DNA of 39,027 bases from a virus (lineage: Duplodnaviria > Heunggongvirae > Uroviricota > Caudoviricetes), in IMG/VR virus record IMGVR_UViG_2531839663_000007, one strand, 5' to 3'. How positions within the stretch are numbered: position 1 is the stretch's first letter; every line of letters begins with the position of its first letter. A program made the translations under genes and the position numbers. Below, piece by piece: positions 1,137-14,494 of this stretch. The notes beneath the pieces were generated by a model. The model was not told the DNA's origin and did no database searches. It saw only the letters and a list, made by a program, of their open reading frames with translations.

Positions 1137-2813
1137 CTAAGCAACATGTAGTTCATCGTTGGCGGAAGTGGCTGCTTTGCGTTCCTGCTCAATAGCTAGT
1201 GACTCTCTATATTCTTTCGCCTCTGCAAACATTGTCCAGTGGGCATTGATGTTCATATCTTCAATAACCGATTTAATTTCTTTAATATTTACGTTAAAAA
1301 ACTCTTTTCGTGAGTTAATTTTATTGACCTGCTTTTCGTTGAAGACTTTATGCAGATGATTTTCTAATGACGGTGCATCATCACTATAAATCATCGCATG
1401 AACATCGAACGAAAAAGGAACACTAGCATCCCCAAGTTCACGAACACGATCAAGTGGTTCAAGGCGGCGTGTCATTCCAATTTTATATACATCTTCGCCA
1501 AATGAGCCAATATTGCTAATTATATAAACATGGCCTGATCTAGTTTGTTGAGCCATAGAAATAGCTCGTTGGTTTTTAGCTTCAGCTTCTTCATATTTTA
1601 ACTGTAGTTCAGCTATTTTTTGCTCTAAAGCTAAGCGTTGTTCTTCATTTGCAAGCATAAGCTCTTTCGTTGCTTTATTTATAGCTTGCTGAATAGCTTT
1701 CTCTTCTTTTTCGGCTTCTTTTATCGCTTTTTCATACTCTCTACGAGCTCTTTCCTCTTCACGAAGCTGTTCTTTAATCCTTCTTTGCTCCTCTTTTTCT
1801 TCGAGCATAATTTCATTAACTGCTACACCCCATTTTAGCTCGTTGAGTCTTGCCTGAAGATAGATGTCACTTATTTTTGCGGACCTAAAGGCAGAGCCAT
1901 TGTAATTTACTAGTTGAAATGCATCTTTTATTTCTTGGGAAAGTTTTCCAAAATTGTTGTGTTTGACTTTTGATAAAATACTGTCAACTCTTCCATTGAA
2001 GGCATCCAAAACAAAGTTTATGGCAGTATTACGCCTGTTTTGCTCAACATAATCACACGAAGCAGCTTTATTAGTTTTTATTAATGATTTGGTTAACTCT
2101 CTGGCTTTTTGTAATTCCTTGCCTGCATCTGTAAATTCATAATTTTCTGCCAGCTCATCAAGTACACTACGGTTAGGGATGATCCATTCATCACCATAAC
2201 CTTCAATTTTATTTTTCATTGATTTTGCAACTGCTTCATATTTTTCTGCAAACTCTTTAGCTTCATATGCTGAACCAGCAATCTCCTTTGCTCTTTCTTC
2301 TGCATCAGAAATAATTTTTACTGCATTGTCATTAGCATTTGAGATTAGCTCATTTGCTTTATTATTAGCATTATCAAGACGTTCTTTGGCTTTCAGGCGT
2401 GCATCGCGAGCGTCTTTGGTGATTGCTATAGCTTCGCTATTAGCGTTGCTTATTGTCATCTGAGCTTGATAATTTGCTTCGTTTACTGTTTTAGCCGCCT
2501 TAATTTGGGCTTCATCTATTTTTTGCTTGGCTATTGAGTCCGCATTTTTTATCTTATTCTCTGCATCCATTACTGCGCTGTGCAATTCTTCGTATTGCCA
2601 CAATGGTGCTGCTCGCCCTTCAAGCTCTGATAATTCTCGTACGGTCTGTGCTAGTTTTTCTTGATTTTCAATCAGTTGGTTAGAAAGGGCTATGTTGTTA
2701 GCGGTCAGGTTATCTATAGCCGCTTTGTGTTTTTTACTTTGTTTAAATAATATTACAGCTAGAACAGGGGCGAGAAATGCTAATAAGAGTATAACGATGG
2801 CAAATGAATTCAT
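1137..2813 (-). CDS. Membrane-anchored coiled-coil protein with C-terminal T5orf172/MUG113 (GIY-YIG-like) domain, DUF4041-type architecture, 558 aa
   Basis: N-terminal hydrophobic helix (FAIVILLLAFLAPVLAVILF), long Ala/Lys/Glu-rich coiled-coil, C-terminal motif GHVYIISN..VYKIGMTRRLEPLDRVRELGDASVPFSFDVHAMIYSDDAPSLENHLH; AAGGA RBS; visibly AT-rich versus flanks. Confidence 0.75.
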   Translation of the reverse strand: MNSFAIVILLLAFLAPVLAVILFKQSKKHKAAIDNLTANNIALSNQLIENQEKLAQTVRELSELEGRAAPLWQYEELHSAVMDAENKIKNADSIAKQKIDEAQIKAAKTVNEANYQAQMTISNANSEAIAITKDARDARLKAKERLDNANNKANELISNANDNAVKIISDAEERAKEIAGSAYEAKEFAEKYEAVAKSMKNKIEGYGDEWIIPNRSVLDELAENYEFTDAGKELQKARELTKSLIKTNKAASCDYVEQNRRNTAINFVLDAFNGRVDSILSKVKHNNFGKLSQEIKDAFQLVNYNGSAFRSAKISDIYLQARLNELKWGVAVNEIMLEEKEEQRRIKEQLREEERARREYEKAIKEAEKEEKAIQQAINKATKELMLANEEQRLALEQKIAELQLKYEEAEAKNQRAISMAQQTRSGHVYIISNIGSFGEDVYKIGMTRRLEPLDRVRELGDASVPFSFDVHAMIYSDDAPSLENHLHKVFNEKQVNKINSRKEFFNVNIKEIKSVIEDMNINAHWTMFAEAKEYRESLAIEQERKAATSANDELHVA

Positions 2814-2833
2814 TTTAAAATCCTTTTACTATA

Positions 2834-3430
2834 TTAATTCGAGACTATTGTACTTCTTATACAAGCAACCACTTCAATATCAGAAAATGCACATTCAAAG
2901 CTATTCTCTGCTGTTGTAATTTTAATCATTCCTTTAGGAAGCCTTGTGATTTTTCGAATGGAATAGGTTCCGTCGATATTGATTAACCAGTTTCCATCAA
3001 GTACTTCAGAAAATTTTTGATCACAAATGTATGTGACGAGTCCATCCTGAACAACAATTGGTGATGAAAGGTTTGCAGGAAGAAATGATGAATCGAAGAC
3101 ATATGAACCGTCTTCAATCATTTTGCCTGCGGCAAGGCGAAACTTAACAAGCTCTTCTGTAGCTGCTGTCAGCGAGCTTTGCTTAAGGCCTTGTCCGGTA
3201 GTTAACCATTTGAGGGAGGTTCCTGTTTCAAGAGCACATTGGATTATCCAGTCAGCAGGAAATGTATCCCGCAAATACCTGTTCGCTAGTGTGCTTTTTG
3301 ATACTTCCAAGTGATCAGCTAAAGCCTGTCGTGTCGTAAAGCCATAGGCTTCGACTAATCGCTCAATCGCAGCCTTACCACCTTTATTGGGATTTATTTT
3401 GATCTCACTTGGGTACTTTGATGTTGACAT
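2834..3430 (-). CDS. cI: CI-like immunity repressor (186 CI-type), 198 aa
   Basis: Recalled similarity to 186 CI (AYGF..NRY.R, ALETG..L.WL.TG, EC..D C-terminal region); position between int and divergent apl/cII. Confidence 0.8.
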   Translation of the reverse strand: MSTSKYPSEIKINPNKGGKAAIERLVEAYGFTTRQALADHLEVSKSTLANRYLRDTFPADWIIQCALETGTSLKWLTTGQGLKQSSLTAATEELVKFRLAAGKMIEDGSYVFDSSFLPANLSSPIVVQDGLVTYICDQKFSEVLDGNWLINIDGTYSIRKITRLPKGMIKITTAENSFECAFSDIEVVACIRSTIVSN

Positions 3431-3464
3431 ATCTCTTTTGCGATCCTAGTATCAGTTTTGTACC

Positions 3465-3480
3465 CAATTGGGTACTTGTC
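3465..3480. promoter_or_regulatory. Perfect 16-bp palindrome GTACCCAATTGGGTAC in the cI/apl divergent control region (candidate operator)
   Basis: Palindrome read directly between cI start (3430) and apl start (3526); partial copy TTGGGTAC near 3407-3414. Confidence 0.45.
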
Positions 3481-3525
3481 ACGATTACTACAGGCTCACC
3501 ACAAGCCAATAGGAGATGTTGCATC

Positions 3526-3747
3526 ATGACCCCTAACATTTCAATAACTCTGAATACGCCACACGTCACAATCGAGCGTTATAGCGAACTTACTGGTCTT
3601 TCAATCGACACAATCAACGATATGTTGGCGGATGGTCGCATTCCTCGGCATCGTCTTCGTAAAGACAAGAAAAGAGAAAAGGTAATGATCAACCTTGCTG
3701 CTCTTACCGTTGATGCACTTACTGATTGCAATGTTGTATTCAACTAG
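3526..3747 (+). CDS. apl: Apl/Cox-like excisionase and transcriptional regulator, 73 aa
   Basis: Small basic protein transcribed divergently from cI; AGGAG RBS 10 nt upstream of ATG at 3526; position as in 186. Confidence 0.65.
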
Positions 3748-3779
3748 TTCCATTTTGGGATACATCAGAGGTGTCGACC

Positions 3780-4289
3780 ATGTTTGATTACCAAGTTTCC
3801 AAACATCCACATTTTGATGAAGCCTGTCGTGCATTCGCACTGCGCCACAATCTGGTGCAACTGGCAGAACGTGCGGGCATGAATGTGCAGATTCTGCGGA
3901 ACAAGCTGAACCCAGCTCAACCTCATTTATTAACCGCACCAGAAATCTGGCTGCTTACCGATCTGACTGAAGATTCAACGTTGGTAGATGGTTTTCTGGC
4001 ACAGATTCATTGTCTGCCATGTGTACCGATTAATGAGGTAGCAAAAGAGAAACTGCCGCATTACGTCATGAGCGCAACTGCAGAGATCGGGCGTGTTGCA
4101 GCAGGTGCGGTATCTGGTGATGTAAAAACTAGTGCCGGTCGTCGTGATGCTATCAGCAGCATTAACTCTGTAACACGACTGATGGCGCTGGCTGCTGTTT
4201 CATTGCAAGCCCGTTTACAGGCTAATCCTGCGATGGCGAGTGCAGTTGATACCATGACTGGCCTTGGTGCTTCATTCGGTTTGCTGTGA
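3780..4289 (+). CDS. cII: CII-like lysogeny establishment regulator, 169 aa
   Basis: Size and position match 186 CII (169 aa); GAGGTG RBS; internal ATG chosen within the track ORF 3726-4289. Confidence 0.6.
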
Positions 4290-4296
4290 GGTGTTT

Positions 4297-4593
4297 ATGC
4301 TGACGAAAGAACCATCATTTGCATCGCTGCTGGTAAAACAAAGCCCGGCAATGCACTACGGTCACGGCTGGATCACGGGTGAGGATGGAAAACGCTGGCA
4401 TCCATGTCATTCACAAGATGAATTGCTGTCTGAATTGACCACGAGGAAACGGAGAAAGTCCAAATGTATGCGGCAGAAAGTGAAGTGGTTTATCAGTTTC
4501 GTTACAGAGGGGAGAGTTATTCAGTACCTGAAGATGATTTGCTCTGTTGCTATCCGTCATTGTCGGGCGATGGCAGTTACTTTTTCACGTTAA
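4297..4593 (+). CDS. Hypothetical early-region protein, 98 aa
   Basis: ORF with GAGGTG RBS right after cII; overlaps the next ORF in another frame. Confidence 0.35.
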   Translation: MLTKEPSFASLLVKQSPAMHYGHGWITGEDGKRWHPCHSQDELLSELTTRKRRKSKCMRQKVKWFISFVTEGRVIQYLKMICSVAIRHCRAMAVTFSR

Positions 4594-9485: not shown

Positions 9486-9518
9486 AGGCGATGTCAATCA
9501 GATATCGCCTTGTTTTTT
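9486..9518 (+). terminator. Rho-independent terminator after the DinI-like gene
   Basis: Stem AGGCGAT/ATCGCCT with 11-nt loop followed by TGTTTTTT. Confidence 0.6.
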
Positions 9519-9544
9519 GTCAAGAAAAGAATAATAGGCTAAAA

Positions 9545-10222
9545 ATGAAAATTAATAATGTAGCGTTACCAATATCTCTTGCTGTAATCCTAACTGGTTG
9601 CGTGCCACATGCTTCTAACCGAAATATCACTGCTATTGAAGTGGTGAAGCCTGCTATTGGGCAAAGTGCTACCGCCTACATGGGCGATCCCATTATCACA
9701 TCTGCTACTGGATTTAAAACGGACGTACTAGAACTTGGTGCGGCTAATGGTGCATTGTCTTCTATCGCTGCTGGTACATATTGCAGTGAGGGGAATGGAA
9801 TTTACCGCAATTATCATAACCCTCAAGCTGTTGCGTTAAAAAATCTCTATGGGCAAATCGGTAACTATGTTGATTATGTTAGTTACGATGCTGCAAAAAA
9901 TGAGATATCACCGCCAAATGGTACTTCTTATACTGCATCAGAAATTTCTATCAAACGTGTTCCTGATGGGCTGTGTCGAGTTAGTAACTCATTGGTTAAG
10001 ACTATCGAATACAATGGAAATGCAGGCGGTGTAATGAAGTTCACCTATCGTGAATTTGCAAACGATATGGCTCGTGCAGCATTTACAACAGATTTTTCTG
10101 TAGATTCTAAGGGAAGTGACGTTATCGCTTACAAAGGTGCCAAGTTCAAAGTGAACAAGGCTGATAACTCGTCTATTTCTTATACAATTATTTCTGGCTT
10201 TGACAAGGCTGTCACGTTCTAG
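9545..10222 (+). CDS. Lipoprotein of unknown function (moron), 225 aa
   Basis: Signal peptide with lipobox LTGC (MKINNVALPISLAVILTGC); flanked by terminators; reduced GC. Confidence 0.7.
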   Translation: MKINNVALPISLAVILTGCVPHASNRNITAIEVVKPAIGQSATAYMGDPIITSATGFKTDVLELGAANGALSSIAAGTYCSEGNGIYRNYHNPQAVALKNLYGQIGNYVDYVSYDAAKNEISPPNGTSYTASEISIKRVPDGLCRVSNSLVKTIEYNGNAGGVMKFTYREFANDMARAAFTTDFSVDSKGSDVIAYKGAKFKVNKADNSSISYTIISGFDKAVTF

Positions 10223-10326: not shown

Positions 10327-10350
10327 GCCCGCCAGTTCTGGCGGGCTTTT
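10327..10350 (+). terminator. Rho-independent terminator
   Basis: Stem GCCCGCC/GGCGGGC with short loop followed by TTTT. Confidence 0.6.
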
Positions 10351-10493
10351 GCGTAGATCATGCAGGTGCATGAAAACCACTACATAAAGCGGGCAGGCGT
10401 GGCGGGGATACGAGCGCGCGCTAACTAAAAAGCTAGAGAATCTGTGAATTTTTCAATAGTATTATTCTTAGTTAACTAAAGGAGAATCTTATC

Positions 10494-11558
10494 ATGGCAG
10501 AAAACGGACCTCGTGAAGACTTGGCGAAGCTGGTGTCCCATAAACTATTGGAAAGATTTAAGTGGAAGCAACACGGTCCGACCGATCATGATTTTCCGTG
10601 TACTGAACAAGAATTACACAAGCCAGCGGAAAAAACGCAAGACCACACACATCCAGTTGATATTGTCTTTCATTATAAAGATCCTTACTTAAATAAAATT
10701 GTTTATCTAAATACTGATTTGAAAAGTTATTCAAAAGGGTCTTTAAATTCTAAAATGGTTGAAAATGCTTTAGATTCCTTAGCAAAAACTATTCATTGTG
10801 CGCAGAATAGTCAGGTATGGAAAAGTCGCTATGAGACAACCATGTCTAAAAGTGAAGTACGAGGGTTACTTTTTGTATATAATCATGATAATGACTATAA
10901 GCATAATTTCTATGACTATTTTTATCCTCCTAAACCCAAAAAAGGGAAAAGACCTGCGGCAGTTAATTTAGACAGAGTAAATGTATCTGAAAATCAGCAA
11001 ATACATATAATTGAGCCACGAACTATTAGTTATCTTATGTCTGTTGTTGCTGATATGAACGAAATGATTGCGGAAAATAAATTCCCGCGTGATGATTATG
11101 GGTTCTATTATCCTCAATTAATACTTCATAAGGTTGTGACTGCAGAAGAATATCTTCCAGCTACAGTGGAAACTCTAACATCCCCCTACATGATAATTAA
11201 ACATGGTCCAGTAATAGAATATAATAGAGCTAAAAAGGAGGACGAGCTGGTTTATCCTGAAGGGTTTATTGTTTATTACAACCGCTCCGGTAAAACAGAC
11301 TTAGAGTTTAATTATTTATTAGATACTCTAGCTAACTACCAGATATTAAACTCAAAAAATAATATTAGAATTAGAGTAGCATGTATTGATAAAAGTGAGC
11401 ACATACGGACTAATTTTATAAAAGCTATAGAAAAATTTTCATATCAGTGGGGATATGATGAATCTATGAAGGAAAAATTATTATCTATTGAGCTATATAT
11501 TGTGCCTCTATCTCGAGAGCAATATTTAACAGAAGAAAGATCATGGGATGTTAAATAA
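10494..11558 (+). CDS. Unrecognised protein, gene 1 of three-gene cargo operon, 354 aa
   Basis: AAAGGAGAA RBS 7 nt upstream; AT-rich; possible PD-(D/E)xK-like motif (PVDIVFHYKD...YLNTDLK) is inference only. Confidence 0.75.
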   Translation: MAENGPREDLAKLVSHKLLERFKWKQHGPTDHDFPCTEQELHKPAEKTQDHTHPVDIVFHYKDPYLNKIVYLNTDLKSYSKGSLNSKMVENALDSLAKTIHCAQNSQVWKSRYETTMSKSEVRGLLFVYNHDNDYKHNFYDYFYPPKPKKGKRPAAVNLDRVNVSENQQIHIIEPRTISYLMSVVADMNEMIAENKFPRDDYGFYYPQLILHKVVTAEEYLPATVETLTSPYMIIKHGPVIEYNRAKKEDELVYPEGFIVYYNRSGKTDLEFNYLLDTLANYQILNSKNNIRIRVACIDKSEHIRTNFIKAIEKFSYQWGYDESMKEKLLSIELYIVPLSREQYLTEERSWDVK

Positions 11559-12634
11559 TGAGTGAAATACACAGTGTTACAGACAAAGCTTTATACGAGG
11601 CTTTATGCCAATCACGTGTCACTGATAATGATATGGTGGAATTGTTTTTATCCCGTGGAATTTTGGTGTCAAAAAAAACTGAGCGTAAGCAACTAGCAAA
11701 AAATTTCTCAAAGCTCACTCATGATTATTATTTGCATCAGAAAATTTCTGGAATATTTGGAGGTTTTTTAAGGCGAGAGAAATCTACGGCTATAGTTATT
11801 AAGAATAATATTGATAAGCCACTACTTGTTAAGGCTGCTAATAAGCTTAAAGATCAGCTGGAAAGCGAAGATGATATATGTCATGTAATCAGTGATAAAG
11901 ATTTTATTAAAATTAGCATTACATACTTATCAACCAATTTTGGTAAAAGTGAATTTAACCAAGTAGAGAAGAAAACTGCTGTTTTTGAAATCGAGTCCCT
12001 TTCGGATGGTTTTTCAATTCGTAGGCCTGATAGTGAACAAGCTGAGATTTATAATAAAAAACTACTAAGTATTATCGAACAGGTTATACAAAAGGAAAAA
12101 GATATAGAAGCAACGACTTTAGATACAGAAGAAATCAACCTCGCGAACATCGATGACGCAGATAAAAGAACAGAATTTTTTAAGCGGCTCATCAATGGGT
12201 TGGATGGATATGTTTTAGATGATGTTACGGATGTTTATATCTACCATCCTAAACCTGCTGTCATGGAGGAGGAAGATGGGGATTCTGAAACAGGAATACA
12301 TATTAGCAAAGCATCTTTGAAAGGAGAGGGGGTGCTTAAATCTGAAGAGTTGAATTCTTTGTATGATAGAGGGTTTTATATTTGGAAAATAAGATGGAGA
12401 ATAAAGGATAAATCTACTACTCCAGATCTTTATGATTTTGAAGCTCAGTTTAGTGATCCTTTAGAGTTTAAGAGCTTTTCATATATTTCTAGAGGGGTGA
12501 GGAAATATAAAGGTGCCGGAGAATATAATAAAAATCCGAGCCAATTACCGGATGATGAAGAATATCATTTTAAAAGACTTATTGAAAAAACGGCGCGTTC
12601 AATTATAATGGATATTAATAAAGAGTATGAGTGA
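11558..12634 (+). CDS. Unrecognised acidic protein, gene 2 of three-gene cargo operon, 358 aa
   Basis: Start overlaps stop of gene 1 (TAATG); AT-rich; no Walker A or other motif recognised. Confidence 0.75.
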   Translation: MSEIHSVTDKALYEALCQSRVTDNDMVELFLSRGILVSKKTERKQLAKNFSKLTHDYYLHQKISGIFGGFLRREKSTAIVIKNNIDKPLLVKAANKLKDQLESEDDICHVISDKDFIKISITYLSTNFGKSEFNQVEKKTAVFEIESLSDGFSIRRPDSEQAEIYNKKLLSIIEQVIQKEKDIEATTLDTEEINLANIDDADKRTEFFKRLINGLDGYVLDDVTDVYIYHPKPAVMEEEDGDSETGIHISKASLKGEGVLKSEELNSLYDRGFYIWKIRWRIKDKSTTPDLYDFEAQFSDPLEFKSFSYISRGVRKYKGAGEYNKNPSQLPDDEEYHFKRLIEKTARSIIMDINKEYE

Positions 12635-12642
12635 GATAACAA

Positions 12643-13347
12643 ATGAAAACACTGGATAAAATTAAGTGGAGCAGAGTGAAGTTATCAATAACCTTCTCTG
12701 AACTAATTGATTATTTTAAACGTAATTCTTATGATGAAAGTAAAGGTTATGGTTATACTTTTGTGAATTTTACTGAACATGAAGTTTCCGCTTCTTATGT
12801 TGAAAAGTCATTGCGTACAGAAGTTATTGTATCGCCCGCGGGAGATGAGATAGAACAAGATTTTTTAGAGTATGAAACCATAAAATTTGCATTAAAGCCC
12901 GTATCTAAAAATCTCTCTTTATTGGCTATTTTTAATCCCCCTAAATCTATAAAGAAATTGACGGATAGACTTAGTGTAGATTTCAATTATAGGGTTGGAT
13001 TTGGTTCAATTACCTTAAATTTAAAGGAGTATATAAATTATCTAAGTTTACAGCATTCAATAAGTCTATTACATATTGATAAAATTAAAGTTAGCAATGT
13101 TGTGTTAAATGGGAACTCCAAGGCCTCGGTTGAGATAACTTCCACAAAAAATGCATTGTTAGAGCTAGAAAGTATTTTTACTAACAAAAAATATAATATA
13201 GATAAAGTTAGGTTGCATTGTTTGATTTACGGGGAACCTTCTTTTGTTGAGCTTTCAAAAAGCGCTTTTATTAATTCAGATTCTAATCATCTGGATTTTT
13301 ACTCCGACTTCCTCATTCAGCAATTATCTAATGATGAATTTCGTTAA
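12643..13347 (+). CDS. Unrecognised protein, gene 3 of three-gene cargo operon, 234 aa
   Basis: Starts 8 bp after gene 2; AT-rich; followed by hairpin. Confidence 0.75.
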   Translation: MKTLDKIKWSRVKLSITFSELIDYFKRNSYDESKGYGYTFVNFTEHEVSASYVEKSLRTEVIVSPAGDEIEQDFLEYETIKFALKPVSKNLSLLAIFNPPKSIKKLTDRLSVDFNYRVGFGSITLNLKEYINYLSLQHSISLLHIDKIKVSNVVLNGNSKASVEITSTKNALLELESIFTNKKYNIDKVRLHCLIYGEPSFVELSKSAFINSDSNHLDFYSDFLIQQLSNDEFR

Positions 13348-13348
13348 T

Positions 13349-13369
13349 AAAGGCGGGTATGCCCGCCTT
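13349..13369. terminator. GC hairpin AAGGCGGG-TATG-CCCGCCTT between convergent cargo operon and portal gene
   Basis: Inverted repeat read directly; T-run weak on + strand, partial on - strand. Confidence 0.4.
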
Positions 13370-13453
13370 GCTGGCGATATGTTGAGCTACGCTCAATTGA
13401 CTTTTCTATTTATATGGTTATTAATTGATTTGTTTATAATATCTGAATTTTTA

Positions 13454-14494
13454 TTAAGTTGCCTTTTCAAGCTTGTAAGGGATAAAACGTATAATCTCGT
13501 GGCCGAGCCAGCAGTTAAGCTCCATTATTAGCTTCTGTAGTGGCAATAATTCATTCCTTACAAATACATTACTTGCCTTCTCCACATCCCCAAACCCCCC
13601 AACATTATTCGGCATAATCCCCATCATTTGCGGCGGCACACGATGCGCCGCCATCATGTCGTCCCGGCTTACGTTCTTGATGTTCAGAAACTCATCCTTT
13701 GCCGCCACTTCTGACAGCGGGATGATCTGAAGCCCGTCCTTTTTGCCGTTAGGCGAGTACATAAACAGGTTGCGGAAGTTGCCCGGACCTTTGGCGCTTT
13801 TCATCGCGTTGCGGAGGTTGTTCACATCCTCCTGGTTCTGAGCGGCATCGGTCATGTACATTATGAATCCTGCATGGCTGCCATTAATATAATATTTGCG
13901 TCGGAACAGCGTGGCGGACTCGTTGAGCAGGGCTGACGGAATGGCAGAAAGATAGCCGGGCAGGCCGTAGATCTCCTGGTTGATATCGGGTTCCATCAGA
14001 TGAAAGATGCTGCCTTTCGTGAACTGATACGGCTGGGTTGTCATACCGTATTGCACAAACCAGTAGGTATCCAGGTCTAACCCGCGTCGGGTGTATTTTG
14101 CCAGAGCAGGCTCAAGGGCGATAACTTCACCGAAGCGGTTCGTGCGTTTCTCCAGGTAGGCGTTACCAAATACCAGATAGTCCTGCACAAAACGTGAAAA
14201 AGCCTGCTGGCTAAGCAGCGGGTGAGGGATGTAGGTGCTGGTTAGAATGTTGCATTTCACTGCAATGGGTGAGCTGTGATGCACGGCGGCGCGGAAGGTT
14301 CGCGCCAGTCCGTCAAAGCTGACGGGCGGCTCATACCAACGGTCCATCTGTACGCATTCCACATAGTCCAGTAATTCTCGGCGGTCCAGTACTGGAATGG
14401 GATCGCCGAAGCTGAATGCTTCGGCTGAAGTCTGGCTTTTATGCTGGGTCTGGTTCTGCGACGCAGCGCGGTTCTTCTTACTCTTTCCCATCAA
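13454..14494 (-). CDS. Q: Portal protein (P2 gpQ-like), 346 aa
   Basis: Size and position; ATGA overlap with terminase large subunit. Confidence 0.85.
   Translation of the reverse strand: MMGKSKKNRAASQNQTQHKSQTSAEAFSFGDPIPVLDRRELLDYVECVQMDRWYEPPVSFDGLARTFRAAVHHSSPIAVKCNILTSTYIPHPLLSQQAFSRFVQDYLVFGNAYLEKRTNRFGEVIALEPALAKYTRRGLDLDTYWFVQYGMTTQPYQFTKGSIFHLMEPDINQEIYGLPGYLSAIPSALLNESATLFRRKYYINGSHAGFIMYMTDAAQNQEDVNNLRNAMKSAKGPGNFRNLFMYSPNGKKDGLQIIPLSEVAAKDEFLNIKNVSRDDMMAAHRVPPQMMGIMPNNVGGFGDVEKASNVFVRNELLPLQKLIMELNCWLGHEIIRFIPYKLEKAT

Follow-up and report, generated by a model that had tools for sequence, protein, structure and literature searches.

The DNA analysed here, called the window in the following, is the complete stretch of 39,027 nucleotides (nt) of the IMG/VR record IMGVR_UViG_2531839663_000007, a P2/Fels-2-like prophage of E. 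coli. Between the replication gene A and the portal gene it carries an operon of three plus-strand genes, whose products we call Hp1, Hp2 and Hp3. Judged by sequence comparison, this operon is a divergent member of the known and validated anti-phage system 3HP and not a new system. The genes and the signals directly in front of them are:

10494-11558, plus strand: Hp1 open reading frame (ORF), 354 amino acids (aa)
11558-12634, plus strand: Hp2 ORF, 358 aa
12643-13347, plus strand: Hp3 ORF, 234 aa
10479-10484, plus strand: ribosome-binding site AAGGAG, 9 nt 5' of the ATG of Hp1
10422-10493, plus strand: AT-rich operon leader of 72 nt, which contains this ribosome-binding site

The three genes are closely packed. 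Hp1 and Hp2 overlap by 1 nt at the junction gttaaaTAATGagt (TAATG), and a gap of 8 nt separates Hp2 from Hp3 at the junction gagTGAgataacaaATGaaa (TGA-gataacaa-ATG). The leader is identical in E. coli 23CRST009. From 10501 to 13500 the GC content is 0.31-0.35, while the structural genes have 0.51-0.62 and gene A has 0.53; the three genes themselves have 31-34%, the backbone about 53-58%. The GC content at third codon positions is 0.26-0.27 in the operon genes versus 0.57 in gene A. An original prediction, made from the window sequence without database searches, had described this arrangement, including a terminator in front of the operon and a GC hairpin behind it, as well as its higher AT content relative to the phage backbone, and all of these features are indeed present. 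As it also stated, a Walker A motif is found in none of the three proteins, and the same is true for a hydrophobic segment.

All three proteins are recognised by the PADLOC models of the 3HP system, with most of each protein covered (Hp1, PDLC03004, 2.7e-62; Hp2, PDLC03005, 7.9e-40; Hp3, PDLC03006, 3.1e-14). The experimentally characterised copy of this system was described by Rousset et al. 2022 (Cell Host Microbe, PMC9122126), in whose study eight further systems of the gpA-gpQ hotspot of P2 were cloned. One of these clones, pFR109 from E. coli E1114, is listed as "hp + hp + hp" together with its protein sequences in their Table S2A, and protected against only one of eight phages, namely P1 (Rousset 2022, PMC9122126). 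The corresponding system is named Rst_3HP in DefenseFinder and 3HP in PADLOC. In BLASTP comparisons with the three pFR109 proteins, Hp1 shows 37% identity to protein 1 (E 4e-64), Hp2 29% to protein 2 (E 3e-42) and Hp3 25% to protein 3 (E 6e-17); all three alignments are full-length and the proteins of both operons are colinear. The PADLOC matches and the full-length homology to pFR109 rule out the candidate new defence system of unrecognised proteins which had been proposed for this locus. The possibility that the operon corresponds to a described but obscure hotspot system had been raised at the same time, and 3HP is just that. The reading of the operon as anti-phage defence, carried as cargo in the P2 A-Q hotspot, is supported.

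For the distribution of the trio we scanned one genome per species, which yielded 80 loci. These loci come from Gamma-, Beta- and Alphaproteobacteria, Acidobacteria, Verrucomicrobia, Desulfobacterota, a cyanobacterium and others. Wherever enough downstream DNA was available, a Hp2 homologue directly follows Hp1 (77 of 77 loci) and an ORF of 221-249 aa directly follows Hp2 (75 of 75 loci). All of these third ORFs form one family together with protein 3 of pFR109. In 75 of 75 loci from several phyla the genes of Hp1, Hp2 and Hp3 thus lie side by side and point in the same direction. Fused forms of Hp1, Hp2 or Hp3 do not occur among the listed homologues. Hp3 evolves fastest: its homologues share about 20% identity (median) with the protein of the window, compared to 30-40% for Hp1 and Hp2. 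The neighbouring genes are variable and include integrases, restriction-modification methylases, UvrD-like helicases, AAA_15/21 ATPases, Fic, the Tn7-like TniQ and TrbL, which are genes typical of mobile or defence islands. Because each of the three genes has hundreds of homologues and their order is kept in all 75 loci, we regard them as real genes. Chance ORFs in AT-rich DNA, as well as a function of the trio in morphogenesis or replication, are rejected in view of the conservation, the matches to defence models and the variable genomic contexts.

The exact operon, with at least 99.9% nucleotide identity, is present in 5 of 5,426 complete E. coli genomes. In a megablast search of the operon against deposited phage records only the cos-proximal 123 nt were matched; therefore this 3HP variant is absent from the deposited phage genomes. 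Some loci of the scan deserve a remark. L015, L019 and L024 are short contigs of metagenome-assembled genomes labelled Lactobacillales, Bacillota and Paceibacterota, and their scores with the Hp1 hidden Markov model are as high as those of enterobacterial proteins. These contigs with Gram-positive or candidate phyla radiation labels may reflect mis-binning rather than the true distribution. In L015 and in L047 (Photorhabdus) two ORFs take the place of an intact Hp2 gene, which suggests a frameshift or decay.

Scanning the single sequences against Pfam gave nothing for the three proteins (PF26115 is not reported by the local Pfam copy), and the PHROGs scan gave only families of unknown function. 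A precomputed assignment to PF26115, called "GAPS4 PD-(D/E)XK nuclease domain" in UniRef, is nevertheless found on all Hp1 homologues, and the Prokaryotic Genome Annotation Pipeline labels Hp1 as a PD-(D/E)XK nuclease domain-containing protein. Residues 15-211 of Hp1 match the NCBIfam model GapS4a (NF047933) with an E-value of 1.9e-10 and 40.5 bits, and 30 of 55 diverse Hp1 homologues match this model as well. Since the cut-off of the GapS4a family is 270 bits, Hp1 stands, by its sequence score, outside the family in the sense of NCBI. In an alignment of the 55 homologues, which reach down to 30% identity, H53, P54 and D56 as well as D75, L76 and K77 are invariant. A PD-(D/E)xK-like pattern (VDIVFHYKD ... 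TDLK) had been pointed out before as speculative; the invariance of P54/D56 and D75/K77 and the PF26115 assignment confirm it. The resulting HPxD...DLK is the canonical PD...DxK arrangement and lies at the position of the HGxD-SxK motif of GAPS4a, in which the Asp is indispensable for defence (Mahata et al., bioRxiv 10.1101/2023.03.28.534373 / 10.1101/2025.09.07.674715). Hp1 thus has the conserved D...(D/E)xK motif of the PD-(D/E)xK superfamily, as far as can be read from the sequence, and is predicted to be a nuclease effector of the GAPS4a type with D56, D75 and K77 as candidate catalytic residues. The C-terminal domain of Hp1 does not align with GAPS4a. Further residues invariant in the 55 homologues are E3, C36, H42, C102, N130 and D132, of which C36, H42 and C102 could form a metal-binding site. 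A tblastn search with Hp1 against phages returned 3HP-type relatives only.

GAPS4 itself is a complex of the composition GAPS4a2-GAPS4b2 with a DNase activity that is activated by DNA breaks; according to prediction its two GAPS4b subunits make up a ring, and GAPS4a docks on globular domains of GAPS4b that are helical (Mahata et al., bioRxiv 10.1101/2023.03.28.534373, 10.1101/2025.09.07.674715). The NCBIfam model GapS4b (NF047934) is matched by 15 of 55 Hp2 homologues, with a best E-value of 2.4e-9. Hp2 appears to be a distant relative of GapS4b, connected to it by remote homology and not by membership. PDB profile searches with Hp1, Hp2 and Hp3 gave no meaningful match, and none to RdgC for Hp2 and Hp3; therefore the folds are not apparent from the sequences alone. 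When the whole Hp3 family was scanned against Pfam and NCBIfam, only scattered single chance matches appeared, and a profile-profile comparison of Hp3 with Hp1 detected no significant similarity.

Predicted structures were more informative. In the AlphaFold2 model of Hp2 (predicted local distance difference test score, pLDDT, 84.6) a domain of four helices at the N-terminus (about residues 7-66) is followed by a mixed alpha/beta body that is RdgC-like. For Hp3 an alignment of 116 sequences from an exhaustive HMMER search yielded a model with a pLDDT of 96.7 and a predicted template modelling score of 0.89, according to which Hp3 is a stand-alone protein with a complete RdgC/IML3/CENP-L fold. 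The base, centre and tip domains of RdgC can be recognised in the modelled fold. The fold is shared but the family is not, as neither a Pfam nor a PDB profile match connects the 3HP proteins to RdgC by sequence. Hp3 and residues 76-357 of Hp2 have the same order of secondary structure elements (beta-alpha-beta4-alpha-beta-alpha-beta2-alpha-beta3-alpha), and therefore Hp2 resembles Hp3 plus an extra N-terminal helical domain. RdgC, RexA of phage lambda, IML3 and CHL4 make up an established class of DNA-binding folds, and IML3-CHL4 is a heterodimer of two such proteins on DNA (RexA paper). We predict Hp2 to be a DNA-binding ring subunit which also serves as the dock of the nuclease, and Hp3 to be the second half of the ring.

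The role of Hp3 could also be a different one. Hp2 might form a homodimeric ring like GAPS4b, with Hp3 staying outside, either as an inhibitor or antitoxin-like lid, by which host DNA would be shielded from the nuclease, or as a sensor of a phage protein that sets the specificity. GAPS4 needs just two proteins and a b2 ring, the fast evolution of Hp3 is typical of a specificity or sensor subunit, and the narrow activity of the tested 3HP would fit as well, unlike the broad range of GAPS4. On the other hand, Hp3 is modelled with a complete RdgC/IML3 fold in the element order of the Hp2 body, as in IML3-CHL4, and it is present in all 75 loci without exception. We therefore consider a position of Hp3 outside the ring to be rather unlikely and prefer the Hp2-Hp3 heterodimer.

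The prophage has the gene order integrase, CI, CII, Dam methylase, replication endonuclease A, a small ORF and a DinI-like gene, with portal and terminase on the opposite strand. The features flanking the operon are:

10327-10350, plus strand: Rho-independent terminator, GCCCGCCAG-tt-CTGGCGGGC, followed by TTTT
10358-10421: P2-type cos region, left edge of the cargo slot, with the cohesive-end equivalent GGCGTGGCGGGGATACGAG at 10396-10414
13350-13369: GC-rich hairpin with an 8-bp stem, AAGGCGGG-TATG-CCCGCCTT, between the convergent 3HP operon and portal gene

The terminator closes the upstream early/cargo transcription unit (gene A, the DinI-like gene and a 243-aa ORF). Fels-2 has the identical terminator and E. 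coli 23CRST009 a nearly identical one. A simple scan of the window for terminators missed it because its T-run has only 4 T. The hairpin lacks a T-run on the plus strand, whereas the minus strand has TTTATT (it reads ...CCCGCCTTTATTAACG). It is likely a bidirectional terminator common to the 3HP operon and the convergent portal/terminase operon. Because the T-run is on the minus strand only, it looks at least as good a terminator for the portal operon, and it looks as if this were its primary function.

In the alignment with Fels-2 the identity continues through the terminator and the cos region up to 10421, where the homology ends; therefore the operon fills the slot between cos and the portal gene. 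The cos stretch can also be aligned with the cos sequences of P2 and P4 given in Table S2 of Rousset. In Fels-2 (NC_010463.1) the same slot harbours a single gene of 565 aa, STM2723.1 (2691-4388), which is annotated as hypothetical protein but is an AbiU/AIPR protein (PADLOC AbiU 2.7e-112; Pfam AIPR 8.8e-43). The presence of AbiU at this place identifies the slot as a defence-cargo site. The original prediction described a locus at which P2-like prophages swap defence systems, and in support of this the operon is absent from most related P2-like prophages, whose slots are taken by other cargo or defence genes. The operon had also been assigned to the position of tin and old in P2. This is right as far as the A-Q interval is concerned, but the published P2 clone has the order Q-end, terminator, cos, old/tin, so that old/tin lie on the gene A side of cos and the operon of the window on the portal side. 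In Fels-2-type P2-like phages the short cos-portal interval is thus itself a cargo slot, distinct from the old/tin position. On the gene A side the cargo varies independently of 3HP, even between prophages that are otherwise nearly identical. The window and Fels-2 have a lipoprotein-like ORF of 243 aa there, W444 has two small ORFs, and 23CRST009 has nothing.

Two other genes of the window touch on its cargo. The 243-aa ORF on the A side of cos (9491-10222, plus strand; GC content 0.40, isoelectric point 9.0) resembles a lipoprotein at its N-terminus (...LAVILTGC), is assigned to phrog_1353, a family of unknown function, and has the same position and length as STM2726 of Fels-2. It has no match in PADLOC, Pfam or NCBIfam; possibly it is a moron that acts at the surface or a gene for superinfection exclusion. 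In a second AT-rich patch (GC content 0.35-0.39), between the integrase and the CI repressor, the minus strand encodes a 558-aa protein (1137-2813) that matches PD-Lambda-1 of PADLOC (8e-120) as well as DUF4041 and T5orf172/MUG113 of Pfam. Due to the PD-Lambda-1 match the prophage has a second known defence gene at another cargo site.

The position next to cos raises the question whether the operon might serve the DNA transactions of the prophage itself, by modulating RecA or recombination, by biasing the decision between lysis and lysogeny, or by processing the cos ends. The first operon gene begins only about 70 nt from cos, and among the proteins with the fold predicted for Hp2 and Hp3, RdgC inhibits RecA and RexA biases the lambda switch (RexA paper). 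However, the homologous trio alone on a plasmid protects against P1, and in many genomes the genes next to the trio are variable and not those of a phage, for example integrases, restriction-modification genes, conjugation genes and the Tn7-like TniQ. Neither the lack of the trio in most related P2-like prophages, or its replacement by other defence genes, nor a base composition that is that of foreign cargo would be expected for such a role, and we regard it as highly improbable compared to defence by 3HP.

Family membership, the nuclease motif, two RdgC-like folds in the models and the strict conservation of three genes were obtained in the present analysis. The anti-P1 activity of the homologue and the DNase activity of GAPS4 triggered by DNA breaks are taken from the papers. 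As a whole these data are best explained by a 3HP member in which the nuclease Hp1 is gated by a DNA-embracing Hp2-Hp3 heterodimer, and we consider this explanation probable. Such a system would be a three-part relative of GAPS4, which senses DNA breaks. Hp1 would be the effector, a PD-(D/E)xK nuclease of the GAPS4a type. Hp2 and Hp3, as structurally paralogous RdgC-fold proteins, would form a pseudo-symmetric heterodimer in the shape of a ring or a horseshoe that embraces DNA, for which IML3/CENP-L with CHL4/CENP-N or the homodimeric ring of GAPS4b provide a precedent. The docking site of Hp1 would be the additional helical domain at the N-terminus of Hp2. When the ring binds to DNA in an abnormal state that arises in the infection, for instance to free ends, to breaks or to linear phage DNA that has been injected or is replicating, the nuclease would be released, and the released Hp1 would degrade DNA and block the phage, possibly at the cost of the cell. 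In this scheme the pairing of Hp2 with Hp3, the docking of Hp1, the kind of trigger and the choice of DNA as substrate are inferred. More tentatively, an ancient duplication of an RdgC-fold protein might have given rise to Hp2 and Hp3, which would clasp DNA like CENP-L/CENP-N and gate the nuclease, with Hp3 tuning which DNA state or phage is recognised; we hold this for possible, if somewhat short of an even chance.

Several observations weigh against this explanation. The copy in the window shares only 25-37% identity with the tested 3HP, which itself was active against one of eight phages. In the 72-nt leader (10422-10493) a scan for sigma-70 promoters gave no site that reaches 9 of 12 matches. 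RexA is an RdgC-fold protein that acts without a closed ring (RexA paper). The Hp2 of the window has no GapS4b match at E<=1, and a profile-profile comparison of Hp2 with Hp3 gave no significant similarity; therefore their paralogy is argued from predicted structure and topology only. With 40 bits against a GapS4a cut-off of 270, Hp1 is linked to GAPS4 by remote homology. Finally, PD-(D/E)xK enzymes are also able to cut RNA. Defence by 3HP could accordingly be imagined with Hp1 cutting tRNA, mRNA or rRNA, and with the RdgC-fold proteins sensing some nucleic-acid or protein cue instead of DNA ends. However, GAPS4a, the nearest relative that has been characterised, degrades the DNA of both host and phage in vivo, and RdgC, RexA and IML3-CHL4 all bind DNA, which speaks for the DNA-directed nuclease and makes an RNA target improbable.

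The 3HP type of system was published and validated in 2022 and is detected by the standard tools PADLOC and DefenseFinder. A 2024 survey listed it as being without known domain family, and it had neither a domain assignment nor a proposed mechanism. Our analysis supplies testable hypotheses: D56, D75 and K77 as catalytic residues in Hp1; the two RdgC-fold subunits Hp2 and Hp3 as a DNA-binding module; and an evolutionary link to GAPS4. Neither of the two GAPS4 preprints mentions 3HP or RdgC, and a full-text search for RdgC together with anti-phage defence found only the RexA paper and an unrelated toxin-antitoxin paper. Apart from the grouping of Hp1 with GAPS4a in Pfam, the 3HP-GAPS4 link and the assignment of Hp2 and Hp3 to the RdgC fold are unstated in the searchable literature. 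If 3HP is indeed a relative of GAPS4 with a heterodimeric ring that arose by duplication, this would define a broader GAPS4/3HP superfamily of RdgC-ring nuclease defence systems and provide a mechanism for 3HP.

Comparing the operon with known systems, the closest one is the 3HP of pFR109. It has the same co-directional gene order with proteins of 333, 359 and 227 aa (354, 358 and 234 aa in the window), and both copies reside in a P2-like prophage, in its cos-proximal gpA-gpQ hotspot, where their transcription leads away from cos. In pFR109, however, the cos stretch of the window (10361-10422) is reverse-complemented relative to the genes. From this orientation of cos the E1114 copy appears to be located on the gene A side, that is the P2 old/tin side, whereas the window copy is on the portal side. 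Therefore two divergent 3HP cassettes would have been acquired independently at the two flanks of cos. P2 old/tin and the AbiU of Fels-2 are, like 3HP, cos-adjacent cargo of P2-like phages that excludes other phages, but their proteins and mechanisms are unrelated to 3HP.

GAPS4 has an N-terminal PD-(D/E)xK nuclease of the same Pfam family PF26115 as Hp1. The motifs HGxD...SxK of GAPS4a and HPxD...DxK of Hp1 are related, although the second catalytic motif differs. GapS4b appears to be distantly related to the second 3HP gene, and its predicted ring and helical nuclease dock match the RdgC-like fold and the N-terminal helical domain predicted for Hp2. While GAPS4 consists of two genes or one fusion, 3HP has the RdgC-like Hp3 as an obligatory third gene, which was found in every locus examined and sets 3HP apart from a two-component system. 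GAPS4 is broad-range, whereas the tested 3HP is P1-specific. With RdgC, RexA and IML3-CHL4 the proteins Hp2 and Hp3 have no detectable sequence similarity in Pfam, PDB or profile comparisons. RdgC is a homodimer, but 3HP encodes two different subunits, and in 3HP the predicted fold is coupled to a dedicated nuclease.

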